Shown: positions 31,213 through 36,720 of the stretch, one piece after another
Position numbering within the stretch: position 1 is the first letter of the stretch
How the letters are laid out: every line of letters starts with the position of its first letter
Source: a virus
Taxonomy: Duplodnaviria; Heunggongvirae; Uroviricota; Caudoviricetes
Length of the DNA: 64,000 nucleotides
Reading direction: 5' to 3' (one strand)
IMG/VR virus record: IMGVR_UViG_2718217859_000011
Coordinates: 1-64,000 of that record
Made by a program: the position numbers and the translations under genes
Notes under the pieces: model-generated
Told to the model about the DNA's origin: nothing
What the model saw: only the letters and a program-made list of their open reading frames with translations
Database searches by the model: none

Positions 31213-32034
31213 CTAGCACATTACCCTCTTTAACTGCCGCTCCGCCCATGCCTCTTCAATGTCAAACCGAACCACCAACGTATCGTAAAAGCGCTTCACT
31301 GATTTTTTCCATGTATCAAGTGTAATAGCACTCGTCACTTTGCATATGGCATTAAATGCCTCTGTTGACGGCAATCTTTCATAGCCACGACCGCCACAAC
31401 GCTGGCAGTCCCTGATAACCGGCATCCCCCGTTTTTCCGACTCTTCACGATGAACGGCAATACCGCGCCCACGGCAGTCTTTACAGGCAGTGGAAATCTC
31501 CCCCTTCCCTTTACATTCCGGGCAGGAAACTTTTACCACCTCCCTGACTTTTTTCCATTCTTCCCAGTAAGACGGATACACACCTTTCGTACACTTTGCC
31601 CATACTGGCGGCTTGCCATCCGGATACTGAACCTTGTTTGTAAAAACTTCGCTTTCAATAAATCTTTCCCCATGGCAACAAGGGCACTGCTTTTTACTCG
31701 CTGCGCTGCGGGCGTAATCCTCAAAAGCGTACGAAGCCATAATGCGCATCACTACCGGTTTTATTTCTGCCGGGAGTTTTCTTAACGCCGAGACGCGATC
31801 GCACTGACTTAATGCATAATCTGCCAGTAATTCTGTTGCCCGCGCCCTGTCATTCATACTAATGCCCATTTTCCCCAGGAACGCAGAAAATCCCATCTCA
31901 GCCCGGTTCTGTGTCATACCCTGCGCAGCCATCACATCAGTGATACTCAGCGCATCTTTTGACGTCGAAGCGGATGCATCAGTCAGGCCTGGGGATTTTG
32001 GGGAATAGTATTTCGGTAAATCTTCCAGTTTCAT
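31213..32034 (-). CDS. Q: late antiterminator Q (QuuQ-like, zinc-binding)
   Basis: 273 aa with several CxxC pairs (CPCCHG, CPECKG, CKDCRG, CQRCGG); sits between rusA and the late terminator. Confidence 0.65.
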   Translation of the reverse strand: MKLEDLPKYYSPKSPGLTDASASTSKDALSITDVMAAQGMTQNRAEMGFSAFLGKMGISMNDRARATELLADYALSQCDRVSALRKLPAEIKPVVMRIMASYAFEDYARSAASKKQCPCCHGERFIESEVFTNKVQYPDGKPPVWAKCTKGVYPSYWEEWKKVREVVKVSCPECKGKGEISTACKDCRGRGIAVHREESEKRGMPVIRDCQRCGGRGYERLPSTEAFNAICKVTSAITLDTWKKSVKRFYDTLVVRFDIEEAWAERQLKRVMC

Positions 32035-32405
32035 TTTTGGACCTGACCGTCATGCATTATTTCGTAAATCTTCACACCCAGCCGACCACCAGGAACAGGC
32101 AGTCCGCGCACAATATTAATTTCATCAAACTGCTCGTCGTCGATAAGCAGTCCCGCATGCGTCAGCGCATCCAGCGGTGCCTTCAGGATATTGTCCAGGT
32201 CACGACGGCGTTTATCCGGTGGCTCTGCAATAATTTTTATTGCCAGCCTTCCCGACAGGTTTAATTTCAACCGCTGCTGGCGAACAATGAGCGCCAAATC
32301 ACGGCGATAACGCTCACCGGCTTTTGATACAAAATATGTGCTGCCATGACGTCGCCAGTAGGTGTTCACCGTCAGCGGGTAAGGCAAAACAAACTCTATA
32401 CACAT
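32031..32405 (-). CDS. rusA: Holliday junction resolvase RusA
   Basis: 124 aa; NTYWRR...DKRRRDLDN...DALT...DDEQ motifs recalled as RusA family. Confidence 0.85.
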   Translation of the reverse strand: MCIEFVLPYPLTVNTYWRRHGSTYFVSKAGERYRRDLALIVRQQRLKLNLSGRLAIKIIAEPPDKRRRDLDNILKAPLDALTHAGLLIDDEQFDEINIVRGLPVPGGRLGVKIYEIMHDGQVQK

Positions 32406-32417
32406 CAGTACCCCCTT

Positions 32418-33407
32418 TTACCCAAGCACGCCGGTTGCAAAGGCGTGATCAAGAAAACGAAAAATTAAATCAACCTGAGAACCATGGTTTTCTTCGAACG
32501 CCAGCAGATCCGCATGAAGTTCGTTGTGATGCTCCCGGCACAGCGGTAGTGTAAAAATATCGTGGGCCTTTGTTCCCATTCCGCCCTGACCATGACCAAT
32601 CAGGTGATGGGGATCGTCGGCTGGCTTACCACAACACGCACACGGCTGTGTCTTTACCCAACGCGTGTATTTCTCATTCACCCAGCGGCGACGTTTGGGG
32701 CGTAACATAAAAGACACCGGCGACTCCGGATCCACTTTCAGCGCCAGCACCTTTTTCGCTTTATCCTGGATGATGCTGGTGGCAGGAACCGAAGGCCCAA
32801 GGTCACACTCCCGGGTGACAGACGGCACAACAGGCGTCGGTAATCTCAGTGCCTTACGGGCTGCACTTTCCGGTAAGGCATCCGCCAGGTCATTACGAGC
32901 CAGCCACCAGCACAGTTCCGGCATTGTCACAACGTGACTGTCATCAAAACCGAGATCCCGACGCACAACAGACAACACCCAGCGGGCACAGTTATCCGTT
33001 GCCATTGATTCCAGCCGTTCCGTGAACTGATCGCGCAGCTGGTTATCGCAGTGCCAGCACAGACGGATTGCGCCCGGAGCGTGTCGCATTGTTGTCATGT
33101 TCTCGCTGTGCCAGTCGGAATGAAGCCACTGGCAGCCTTTTTCACGAAGTAACCAGCGTTCAAGACATTCCACGCCACCAGCACGACGGATCACTGCCTC
33201 ATTGCGGAACACGGCCCGAACGGCAGGATCATCCGCCAGCGGTTGTGATGCCGCCGGAACGGCACCACTGGCGAAAGATGAATAACGTTCCGGCTCAGGC
33301 TCCAGCAGGACACGCCCCTGCATAAACAGGGGCATCAACTCTGAACCTGGCCTGAACAATACGATCCCCATACGTGGGGCAATTTCAGGGGTCAGTAGTG
33401 CTCTCAA
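32418..33407 (-). CDS. DUF968-like (YdfU/NinG-like) protein
   Basis: 329 aa; C-terminal Cys/His cluster QPCACCGKPADDPHHLIGHGQGGMGTKAHDIFTLPLCREHHNELH. Confidence 0.55.
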   Translation of the reverse strand: MRALLTPEIAPRMGIVLFRPGSELMPLFMQGRVLLEPEPERYSSFASGAVPAASQPLADDPAVRAVFRNEAVIRRAGGVECLERWLLREKGCQWLHSDWHSENMTTMRHAPGAIRLCWHCDNQLRDQFTERLESMATDNCARWVLSVVRRDLGFDDSHVVTMPELCWWLARNDLADALPESAARKALRLPTPVVPSVTRECDLGPSVPATSIIQDKAKKVLALKVDPESPVSFMLRPKRRRWVNEKYTRWVKTQPCACCGKPADDPHHLIGHGQGGMGTKAHDIFTLPLCREHHNELHADLLAFEENHGSQVDLIFRFLDHAFATGVLG

Positions 33408-33416
33408 CGTAGAACC

Positions 33417-33932
33417 TCACAGCACAATCTGTTTCAGTTTCTGTACCGCTTTCCCCATATCCGCCATAGCATCAACAAACTCATCAAATTTACGACTTGC
33501 CATTCCATACGCCTGGAGGATTTCCAGTTTCAGAGGATCCAGTTGCTTTTTAATTTCCGCACGATCATTAAATTTCTTCTCTGCTTCTTCCGCAGCCCTG
33601 ATCAGCTCCTCAGCATGCCTGCGTAATTCATCCGGAGTAACGGTCTTTTTAATCACAACGGGTTCCTCTGTTTTTACTGGTATTTCACTATTTACTGCCT
33701 GATGTCCAAATTTAGGATGATGTAACGTTGTAGTTCTTCCATCATTCGCAACGACCAGAAGTCCACTGTCGCGGATAATGCCAATGAGTATCTCCTTATC
33801 CCTTTTATTCAGCAGACTGTACGCCTGCACTTTCTGTGATATCTGGGTCAGTGTTGCGCCTTCCGGCATTCGTTCAACAAAACGTTTAACCCTGGATAAA
33901 ACTGGCTGCAGATGGGGTGGTGTAATTCTCAT
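33417..33932 (-). CDS. hypothetical protein (wHTH-like N-terminus, coiled-coil C-terminus)
   Basis: 171-aa ORF in nin-like operon; no family recognised. Confidence 0.45.
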   Translation of the reverse strand: MRITPPHLQPVLSRVKRFVERMPEGATLTQISQKVQAYSLLNKRDKEILIGIIRDSGLLVVANDGRTTTLHHPKFGHQAVNSEIPVKTEEPVVIKKTVTPDELRRHAEELIRAAEEAEKKFNDRAEIKKQLDPLKLEILQAYGMASRKFDEFVDAMADMGKAVQKLKQIVL

Positions 33933-33947
33933 GCTCCACGCCTCCCA

Positions 33948-34763
33948 TCAGTGAACGGTATCGAGCAGCTTTAACAGCTCAGGGAATCGGGATTCGAAGA
34001 AATGCGGCTGCGTCTCGCGCGGATTTGCAGGACTGGTGATGTTCTTGCCGAACATGCAGCCTTTCGCCGTCAGCGACCAGAATTTTTTGATGTTGTTAAT
34101 CGCGGTACGGCTGTATCGTTCGCGTTGTTCAACAATCCCCAGCTTCGCCATCTGGTGATATGCCTGACTAGCCGTCAGGCGGATACCATACTGCTTCAGC
34201 AGTGCACTCAGCGACAGCGTAGGGCGGCTTGAACCATCTGGCGCATCAGCAGGTGCATCAATGGCATAGATCGGCATAAGTTCAGGAAGACCTGCTACCT
34301 TTGATAATTTCTGGTATGCACCAAGTTTCGAGGAGTTTGACAGATTTAGAGTCTTTGCTGCTGATTCAAGCAGAATGACCCCGGATTTAATTTTGTCGGA
34401 TGTGGTTTCTTCTGGTGATGAATTATGAAGCGCATCAAAAGTACGTATCACTTTTAAGCTGAATGCCGGGCTGATCCACATTGCATATGCATAGACCAGC
34501 TCTTTACAGACATACGTCCCACCATTGCGCCCCTGAATGGTGATGACAGGAATACTACGGGAATCTCCCGTAGTTTCTTCTTCCAGTAATTCCACAAGAG
34601 CCTTCGTTTCAGGACGACGCATAAACTCGTGAACTTCCAGCGAACGGGAGGAGCGATTCTCACCAGCGGCAAGAAGAGCAGCTTTCTGAAGGTCGTTAAG
34701 ACAGTAGTTAGATTCAAAGTACTGGCGCACAGAAACGCCATCAATTACAAGCAACTGATTCAT
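33948..34763 (-). CDS. KilA-N domain protein (putative antirepressor)
   Basis: Start taken at MNQLLVIDGVSVRQY (KilA-N-like); the longer tracked ORF would start inside the SOS box. Confidence 0.65.
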   Translation of the reverse strand: MNQLLVIDGVSVRQYFESNYCLNDLQKAALLAAGENRSSRSLEVHEFMRRPETKALVELLEEETTGDSRSIPVITIQGRNGGTYVCKELVYAYAMWISPAFSLKVIRTFDALHNSSPEETTSDKIKSGVILLESAAKTLNLSNSSKLGAYQKLSKVAGLPELMPIYAIDAPADAPDGSSRPTLSLSALLKQYGIRLTASQAYHQMAKLGIVEQRERYSRTAINNIKKFWSLTAKGCMFGKNITSPANPRETQPHFFESRFPELLKLLDTVH

Positions 34764-34851
34764 TGGTTTCTCCACAAATTTCGGGACTGCACTCCCTTTT
34801 CGTTGATGCAAGATGAACTTACTGCGATTTTTAATAGTTATCAAGGATACA

Positions 34852-34867
34852 CTGTTCATAAATACAG
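34852..34867 (-). promoter_or_regulatory. LexA (SOS) box CTGT-N8-ACAG upstream of the KilA-N gene
   Basis: Minus strand reads TACTGTATTTATGAACAGTG, close to the consensus TACTGTATATATATACAGTA. Confidence 0.55.
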
Positions 34868-34914
34868 TATCTTTAACGAGGTAATACCCAAATTTAGGGT
34901 GTTGCTCAATTCCG

Positions 34915-35310
34915 TTACCGAGTTGCTAATTTGCAACTCGCTTTTTCGTACTTACTGATAGTGATCTCGACCTTACCTTCCGGGATAACCGGTCCCCACT
35001 CCACCAGCATTCTTTTCACCTGACTGTCGTCTTCCCACACCCCCGCGTGGGTCAGGGCGTCAAACAGCGCCTTGTTATAGTTGTCCAGATCGCGGATCCG
35101 GTTATCCGGAGGAAACAACACGATCTCCACTGAAGCAGGTGCCGACGTTGGTTTCGGCAGACGACGTAACTGCTCAACTATTGCTGCGCACGCCGCGCTC
35201 TGGAATTTTCGCCCCGCCGCGCTTATCAGGCTCTTACCAGCAAACGCCCCTTTGTTGGGGTGTCGCCAGTACGTGTTCACGCTGGGCGGGAAAGGCAGTA
35301 TTAGCTTCAT
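34915..35310 (-). CDS. RusA-family resolvase, second copy
   Basis: 131 aa; NTYWRH...DNRIRDLDNY...DALT...DDSQ motifs; paralogue of 32031..32405. Confidence 0.8.
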   Translation of the reverse strand: MKLILPFPPSVNTYWRHPNKGAFAGKSLISAAGRKFQSAACAAIVEQLRRLPKPTSAPASVEIVLFPPDNRIRDLDNYNKALFDALTHAGVWEDDSQVKRMLVEWGPVIPEGKVEITISKYEKASCKLATR

Positions 35311-35633
35311 ACTTTCAGGCCCCTCTCATGTAACCAGTGGGTTGCACGCAGCCTGGCGTTTTCCTCACCGGCAAGCAGTGAGCGGATAATCCCGACCGCC
35401 TCGCTGTCGTCGTCCTTCATCGCAGTATGAAGCGTTATCCCCCGGGCCACGCCACGCTTTATCGTGATGACGCCTTTTTTCTCCAGTGCGCGAAGATGCT
35501 CCACCGCTGCATTCACTGAACGGTATCCCAGCATGGTTGCCACCTCCTGATTGGTTGGCGGGAAGCCACGTTCTTGCTGGTAAGAAATCAGCATATCCAG
35601 CACCTGCTGCTGACATTGAGTTAACGTCGTCAT
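35307..35633 (-). CDS. LexA N-terminal DNA-binding-domain paralogue lacking the S24 peptidase domain
   Basis: MTTLTQCQQQVLDMLISYQQERGFPPTNQEVATMLGYRSVNAAVEHLRALEKKGVI aligns to recalled LexA residues 1-70; only ~45 aa follow; start overlaps upstream stop (TGATG). Confidence 0.6.
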   Translation of the reverse strand: MTTLTQCQQQVLDMLISYQQERGFPPTNQEVATMLGYRSVNAAVEHLRALEKKGVITIKRGVARGITLHTAMKDDDSEAVGIIRSLLAGEENARLRATHWLHERGLKV

Positions 35634-36127
35634 TAAGCCCCCACGTAATTCCCTGACAGATACCATTCATCACCCGATACAGCGCGCTTGCTGCTTTTCC
35701 GTAAGCACCGCTCACGACGCGCCAGAAAATTGTTTCGTTCTGGCTGGGAGTGGCTTTCACGGAATGCCTCCATCCACACCGTTGCAGCTCGACGGAATAA
35801 GCTCCTAGACTCCAGTTCTTCAGCCTGGCGGGTCAGGCACAAAATCACCCGGGGGTCGTTAGTGCCGACATAGAAATTGCGCACAGGTCTGGTTTCACGA
35901 ACAGATTGTGGTTCCGGCTCCTGCGCTCTCTCAGTCAGGCGCGGGAAATGTCTGCGTGTATCTCCTTCACAACGGTGAGCCACACGCCCACTCTGACGTA
36001 ACTTGCTTGCTGACTGCAGAACGCGCTGCCGTGAGTAACCAGCAAAAGCATCCGCAATGTCTCCGGAAGTACACCCCGGATGGGCTTCAATGAATTTCTG
36101 AACTTCATTCAAAAGACTCATAATCAC
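35633..36127 (-). CDS. hypothetical protein, possibly PerC-like regulator
   Basis: 164 aa; C-terminal segment ESRSLFRRAATVWMEAF...RRERCLRK loosely resembles PerC/Pch family. Confidence 0.35.
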   Translation of the reverse strand: MIMSLLNEVQKFIEAHPGCTSGDIADAFAGYSRQRVLQSASKLRQSGRVAHRCEGDTRRHFPRLTERAQEPEPQSVRETRPVRNFYVGTNDPRVILCLTRQAEELESRSLFRRAATVWMEAFRESHSQPERNNFLARRERCLRKSSKRAVSGDEWYLSGNYVGA

Positions 36128-36720
36128 CCCCTGAATCCTGCCGGGATCTGGCTGTAGTCCACGTTGTCGTAACTGGCTTTGAAGTACGGGTCCTCGCGTC
36201 TGGCTGCAGATACTGCAGGAACTTCCCAGGATTCTTCGAAATGACGATCCGGACCAAAGAACGTGACAGCCTGTTTCACAAATTGTGTGCCGCTGTTACC
36301 CATCGCAGATACCCAGCCCGCGTAGCGTTTCACACCTTCCAGCATGGTTTCGGGGTTTACCCCCTCATTCAAACGGGCTTTCCAGGCTTTGAAGGCTGCA
36401 GATTTTAAATTGCCACCAGCACGTTTGGGATAGGCCAGCCATGCCTGCTCAAACTCCGGAGAGTATTCCGGTCGGTTTGAACGAACTCGCACAGACTCAT
36501 CAGCAGATGCACCAACAGCTATTGGTTCATTGACTGGTTCTTTGACTGGTTCAAAAGAGTGACTGGTTCTGGGTGAATCTCCTGCACTACCCCCTGGTGC
36601 AACTCCTGCACTACCTGGTGAATTTGCTGCACCAGATAGTGAATTATTTGCACTACCCCCTAGTGAATCTCCTGCACCATCAAGATGAAGGAGATAGATA
36701 TTACTTGTGTGGGGTAGTGA
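36124..36720 (-). pseudogene. 5'-truncated ORF remnant (unknown lambdoid gene) cut at the Mu-like junction
   Basis: Frame stays open for 76 codons upstream of the tracked GTG start (36492) with no start codon, ending two codons inside Mu-like DNA; Gly/Ser/Ala/Pro-rich repeats then a C-terminal domain. Confidence 0.4.
36531..36681. repeat. tandem direct repeats (3x TGACTGGTTC; ~5x 21-24-bp units)
   Basis: CATTGACTGGTTC / TTTGACTGGTTC / GAGTGACTGGTTC followed by GGTGAATCTCCTGCACTACCCCCT-like units. Confidence 0.6.

Follow-up and report, generated by a model that had tools for sequence, protein, structure and literature searches.

In a lambdoid E. coli prophage, sequence analysis supports the presence, within the nin region, of a high-quality LexA operator in a promoter-like spacer directly upstream of a gene encoding a KilA-N-domain protein; the same run of genes encodes a LexA paralogue that is shown, by sequence comparison and structure modelling, to be a genuine LexA N-terminal domain lacking the cleavage and dimerisation domains and, as such, predicted to be non-cleavable. 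The reading favoured here, tentatively and with slightly less than even confidence, is that host LexA would use the box as an operator on an internal nin-region promoter, and that the paralogue would act as a RecA-insensitive binder of SOS boxes. The analysis covers a window of 64,000 nucleotides (the whole stretch of DNA that was analysed), the relevant features of which are collected in Table 1.

The LexA box, its spacer and its distribution

Read directly, the box is CACTGTTCATAAATACAGTA on the + strand and TACTGTATTTATGAACAGTG on the minus strand, and it agrees with the consensus TACTGTATATATATACAGTA at 16 of 20 positions. The original prediction of a near-consensus LexA box between the second rusA gene and the KilA-N gene is thus confirmed as to the site, although the interval given for it (34851..34869) was one base short of the full 34850-34869. 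Scored with a symmetrised LexA matrix, for which 25 E. coli SOS boxes served as the training set, the box reaches 22.8 bits, the training boxes themselves ranging from 12.8 to 29.6 bits; its heterology-type index is 6.0, compared with 1.6-12.5 among those 25 boxes. It ranks second among the matrix sites of the window and stands above the top score of every one of 50 shuffled windows (mean 12.5, maximum 19.0). The motif CTGT-N8-ACAG occurs four times in the window, where 0.73 copies are expected and none of 100 shuffles gave four, and only the kilA-N copy has an AT-rich N8 spacer; with this core, this spacer and a score in the proven range, the site has the sequence of an SOS box of the E. coli type. 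Matrix scoring and a window-wide scan for further copies, both suggested along with the original prediction, bear it out as to the site.

Table 1. Features in and around the kilA-N locus, in order of window position
Feature	Coordinates	Strand	Basis or remark
Second strong SOS box, TACTGTAAAAATATCCAGTT (minus strand)	29704..29723		24.9 bits; within the N6_N4 DNA methyltransferase gene (codons 3-10), which lies downstream of Q
Antiterminator Q	31213-32034	-	downstream of kilA-N; in minus-strand stretch 31213..33932
RusA	32031-32405	-	downstream of kilA-N
DUF968/HNH	32418-33407	-	downstream of kilA-N
171-aa ORF	33417-33932	-	downstream of kilA-N
KilA-N-domain protein, 271 aa	33948..34763	-	Pfam 1.3e-15; PHROG 129 'transcriptional regulator' 1.9e-108
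rusA-kilA-N intergenic spacer	34764..34914	-	151 bp, 38% G+C; specific to kilA-N allele A
Short hairpin GGGA-GTGCAG-TCCC, TGCAG loop	34783..34796	-	~20 nt upstream of the kilA-N ribosome-binding site
Predicted sigma70 promoter into kilA-N	34816..34844	-	-35 TTGATA 34844-34839, 17-bp spacer, -10 TAAGTT 34821-34816
SOS (LexA) box	34850..34869		palindromic CTGT-N8-ACAG core 34852-34867; matrix score, shuffles
Perfect 8-bp hairpin CGAGTTGC...GCAACTCG	34919..34940		3' end of rusA
RusA Holliday-junction resolvase, window's second copy	34915..35310	-	PF05866 6.4e-15; start overlaps paralogue stop
LexA DNA-binding-domain-only paralogue, 108 aa	35307..35633	-	Pfam LexA_DNA_bind 2.6e-19
PerC-family regulator (YfdN-like)	35633..36127	-	stop overlaps paralogue start

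The spacer that holds the box is the only sizeable non-coding gap in its operon and is poorer in G+C than the flanking genes (~46-55%). Its best promoter candidate, with a predicted transcription start near 34809, scores 10.2 on a -35/-10 weight matrix of our own build, beyond the 99.99th percentile of all window positions on both strands; a stricter consensus promoter scan found none within the spacer. A gap of 6 bp separates the box, which lies upstream with its centre near -50, from the -35 hexamer of this predicted promoter, which the stricter scan missed. Lying upstream of the -35, and not over the -35, -10 or +1, is unusual for LexA repression, and as judged from the sequence this placement weakens the reading that the box controls the promoter. 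Translation of kilA-N is assigned to the start at 34763, which is preceded by GGAG and is the start used in RefSeq; an ATG inside the box (34859) was considered and rejected as unlikely. The hairpin at the 3' end of rusA is followed by a T-run on the + strand only, so that it looks terminator-like for that strand and not for the sense (minus) strand. In 16 of 32 diverse loci, as against 0.32 in shuffles, the kilA-N homologue is preceded by a TGCAG-loop hairpin with a covarying stem, like the one near the kilA-N ribosome-binding site here. There are no minus-strand terminator-like sites at 33300-36300, and the two before Q are weak and inside coding sequence; Rfam, at gathering thresholds, returned no matches at the locus.

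The spacer/kilA-N allele that bears the box was found in 185 of 5,426 complete E. coli genomes. Among 75 spacer copies the box is identical in 74, the remaining one having A for G at position 20, as does the box of phage SfIV. These copies comprise six variants that are 99-100% identical, with five variable positions and one 11-bp indel, the window carrying the minority form that is without the 11 bp near the ribosome-binding site. Because the allele is nearly clonal, the invariance of the box carries no information, and phylogenetic footprinting is uninformative. The SfV-type allele (70% identical) and relatives at 75-80% share the proximal spacer and have no box, and one relative has the right half-site only (12.6 bits). 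Upstream of 80 kilA-N homologues in other species there are only three LexA-like matches, all weak (at -75 to -92, 14-19 bits); one of these three, all in other genera, is not conserved in the sister Erwinia locus.

Strong boxes occur elsewhere in this group. Phages bearing the paralogue have two further ones, inside the cI repressor gene and inside the methyltransferase gene; the latter position also holds a box in SfV orf48 and in two further loci, and in three others the same sequence lies ~2.5-3.2 kb downstream of kilA-N (assigned by position only). Across 79 IMG/VR loci with the paralogue (1.29 Mb) there are 80 boxes of at least 21 bits, which fall into three main site classes, all with N8; no other CTGT/ACAG spacing is enriched in these loci and none gives comparable AT-rich boxes. 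At 27 of the 79 there is no strong box at all. Conversely, the paralogue is present in 81% and 78% of loci with the other two box classes and absent from 19-22%, a co-occurrence that is not distinguishable from the effect of physical linkage. Much more widespread than the kilA-N box, the paralogue is present in most box-less phages, so that box and paralogue are not an obligate pair. Matches to the module containing the paralogue turned up in about half of the complete E. coli genomes that were searched, with Stx2a, Stx2c, SfII, SfIV and SfV phages among them. The gene order LexA_DNA_bind - RusA - KilA-N - DUF968 - Q recurs in combination with different replication, methylase and Q modules. 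The immunity region of the prophage lies outside the window, past a Mu-like insertion.

The truncated LexA paralogue and the KilA-N protein

The paralogue gene directly precedes rusA and shares a few bases with the gene on either side (TAATG, ATGA); its overlap with the PerC gene is the pattern expected of genes that would be translated together. The protein matches PDB 1lea with E = 6.5e-16 over LexA residues 2-69, and its AlphaFold model, fitted to LexA/DNA structures from E. coli, agrees with them to 1.0-1.3 Å across 66-69 residues (50-52% identity). Residues 1-68 form a winged helix-turn-helix in which the numbering is the same as in LexA throughout; beyond these come a short disordered linker and two conserved, family-specific helices (75-87 and 93-102), the tail being predicted as helical with a pLDDT of ~90. 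An earlier description of a protein of 110 residues resembling LexA 1-70 and lacking the S24 autoprotease domain therefore holds as to fold and domain content, and the length is corrected to 108. Pfam finds no S24 domain, and an alignment in search of Ser119 and Lys156 finds both missing, the protein stopping at residue 108. Against TIGR00498 it reaches 70.3 bits, short of the 110.95 required for the family, which indicates that it is not a LexA orthologue; its conserved tail, together with the large size of the family and a stable length of 106-108 residues, indicates that it is not a pseudogene either. An Ala88-Gly89 pair aligns near the Ala84-Gly85 cleavage site of LexA in a protein with no catalytic domain; the likeness of its LLAGEE to the LexA-type VAAGEP was considered as a cleavage site and is probably coincidental, since the motif directly follows a confidently predicted helix (75-87).

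Of the five residues through which LexA contacts DNA (PMC3091678), the paralogue keeps Ser39, Asn41, Ala42 and Glu45. The fifth, Glu44, is replaced throughout the family, by Val here and by Ala in the Salmonella-type subfamily. Across these two subfamilies, which are ~55% identical, Ser39, Asn41 and Glu45 are invariant and position 42 is Ala or Ser, and the residues flanking them in the recognition helix are conserved to the level of true LexA orthologues. The isolated N-terminal domain of LexA binds DNA weakly unless dimerised; this and the loss of Glu44 would count against binding to SOS boxes, and dimerisation through the tail would be conjectural. The literature searched contained no characterisation or functional study of the paralogue family and no SOS box at kilA-N.

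The KilA-N protein consists of an N-terminal KilA-N/APSES DNA-binding domain, a helical middle and a C-terminal alpha/beta domain. It passes the gathering score of Pfam PF04383 and shows an APSES-like fold; its C-terminal 150 residues matched no described family, and the sole PADLOC result was an incomplete match of KilA-N to the candidate PDC-S22. Sequence and fold searches with the 271-residue protein found no similarity to antirepressor families beyond the generic KilA-N domain.

Proposed regulation and competing explanations

The favoured reading can be set out as follows. A lineage-specific, AT-rich promoter cassette carrying a LexA operator would have been inserted between rusA and the KilA-N gene. 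In a lysogen, host LexA bound at about -60 to -41 of TTGATA-17-TAAGTT would keep this promoter low; DNA damage would remove LexA and turn kilA-N on independently of CI and PR. As there is no good terminator after kilA-N, transcription would probably read through the 171-aa ORF, DUF968/HNH and rusA and reach Q. The KilA-N product would be either a DNA-binding regulator or a kil-type protein. Because the paralogue gene overlaps the PerC and RusA genes in a delayed-early operon, it would be expressed only after induction or infection; its product would most likely bind SOS boxes of the CTGT type and be insensitive to RecA in doing so, and after the loss of LexA it could occupy the SOS operators of the phage, and possibly those of the host, anew, such that kilA-N expression would take the form of a pulse.

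As regards the box, it may instead be inert--that is, a relic that came with a recombinant spacer and that LexA may bind without regulatory consequence, kilA-N being read from PR. Its occurrence in a single nearly clonal allele, whose sister alleles lack the box although they have the proximal spacer and a hairpin of identical loop, is consistent with this, as are the half-site relative (which is what decay should produce), the location outside the predicted promoter core and the empty consensus scan of the spacer. This is nevertheless unlikely: chance alone should not yield a site of this score in 64 kb, and it lies in the operon's one sizeable non-coding gap; the composition of the spacer is promoter-like and its hexamer pair is of extreme rank; and the two other strong boxes at fixed places in this phage group indicate that SOS boxes are recurrent in these genomes. 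The box could also serve a promoter on the + strand, giving rise to a small SOS-induced RNA of ~80 nt that would be antisense to the rusA mRNA at its 3' end and would stop at the hairpin and T-run of 34919-34948. A + strand -10 (ATAAAT, 34858-34863) does lie inside the box, which is the classical LexA arrangement; the T-run of the rusA-end hairpin is on that strand only, and the putative transcript folds into two hairpins. But the -35 is poor (TAGTTA), + strand hexamer pairs with a -10 inside the box score at most 5.8 against the 10.2 of the sense promoter, and neither an Rfam match at the locus nor independent conservation speaks for such an RNA, which makes it very improbable.

As regards the two proteins, the paralogue may have drifted away from SOS boxes to become an activator or repressor at other sites, its adjacency to the box then being coincidental. 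In the manner of GIL01 gp6 (discussed below), which binds non-SOS sites and activates a late promoter, a truncated LexA can take up such a role; the family-wide replacement of one of five contact residues, and the abundance of the paralogue in phages with no strong box nearby, point the same way. At the remaining four contact positions and those beside them in the recognition helix, however, conservation is that of true LexA orthologues, no alternative CTGT/ACAG spacing is enriched in paralogue loci, and the paralogue accompanies 78-81% of loci with the other two box classes at no fewer than nine spacings (linkage may explain this); we judge drift somewhat unlikely. A further alternative is that kilA-N is a LexA-controlled antirepressor that inactivates the prophage repressor, like Tum, AntC and the Gifsy antirepressors, with the paralogue tuning the switch. 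It has in its favour the SOS box upstream of kilA-N, one Salmonella-type relative in which an AntA-domain gene replaces kilA-N in the slot after rusA, and the fact that KilA-N domains reportedly occur within antirepressor-like modular proteins. Yet only the generic DNA-binding domain is shared with known families, the C-terminal domain shows no relation to its counterpart in the AntA-domain protein, and most copies in the kilA-N family are without an SOS box. Moreover, the immunity repressors of close relatives are of the self-cleaving HTH + S24 type, from which it is judged that the repressor here is probably not of the non-cleavable kind; with cleavable S24-type CI repressors, no antirepressor would be needed. 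The explanation is accordingly quite improbable, and the earlier suggestion that kilA-N encodes a putative antirepressor is not borne out: the label is unsupported.

Implications and comparison with known systems

A broader proposition is that enterobacterial lambdoid phages encode a RecA-proof LexA surrogate, which would take over SOS operators when induction has done away with host LexA and would time both the KilA-N pulse and SOS shutdown, and that here the SOS-boxed promoter is the sole route to Q. This we put forward as conjecture and consider rather improbable. Were it true, the targets would be the phage boxes (before kilA-N, in cI and in the late methyltransferase gene) and possibly also the host SOS regulon and rivals under SOS control, such as other prophages, colicins or defence systems; and the Mu-like prophage would sever nin-Q from PR, coupling Q and the lysis genes to LexA. 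Prophage genes under SOS control are known, and so are truncated LexA homologues of phages, but the two have not been described together in lambdoid, Stx or Shigella serotype-converting phages, where toxin release and gene transfer are governed by when induction occurs. If the paralogue binds SOS boxes and cannot be cleaved, it would give the phage a means of overriding the response of the host to DNA damage, with a bearing on antibiotic-triggered induction of Stx phages and on how prophages resident in one cell compete; should it not bind them, the locus would be an ordinary nin-region mosaic with one LexA site.

Compared with E. coli LexA (TIGR00498; PDB 1lea, 3jso), the paralogue is ~50% identical and fits to ~1 Å over residues 1-68, but it is without the S24 domain, Ser119/Lys156 and the C-terminal dimerisation domain, and has Val for Glu44. 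Compared with PF04383, P1 KilA and yeast Mbp1, the KilA-N protein stands apart in the C-terminal 150 residues. The paralogue resembles persisting repressor fragments (LexA 1-84, the phi11 CI N-terminal domain) in being a DNA-binding half without a cleavable half that can occupy operators; it differs from them in being encoded by a gene, in ending ...GLKV instead of in the ClpX signal ...VAA and in having an extra tail, and by analogy these last two features may make it stable by design. The N-terminal fragment of the phi11 CI repressor still represses, and the N-terminal domain of S. aureus LexA needs degradation by Clp proteases, on which cells depend for clearing fragments of this kind (PMC10584840 and references therein).

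Phage 186 tum, N15 antC and Gifsy gfoA/gfhA are LexA-controlled prophage genes outside the CI/Cro switch (Lemire et al. 2011, PMC3121763). What kilA-N has in common with them is a canonical SOS box before a prophage gene, which would allow the SOS response to turn the gene on directly, without cleavage of a phage repressor. Their products, however, are small proteins shown to bind non-cleavable repressors, and their genes are beside the immunity region, whereas kilA-N is in the nin region, encodes a 271-residue KilA-N protein and has relatives with cleavable S24-type repressors; its box, moreover, is upstream of the predicted promoter and not over it. Among characterised proteins, the nearest precedent for a truncated LexA from a phage is gp6 of GIL01, a tectivirus of Bacillus thuringiensis; gp6 is 44% identical to host LexA, binds non-SOS sites in the late promoter and activates transcription (Fornelos et al. 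2018, PMC6182141). Like gp6, the paralogue is phage-encoded and consists of a DNA-binding domain only; unlike gp6, it keeps the host recognition helix nearly unchanged, carries a two-helix tail and belongs to a lambdoid nin operon. The two probably arose independently, and the conservation of the recognition helix argues, at the level of sequence, that the paralogue would be specific for SOS boxes rather than for sites of the gp6 type.

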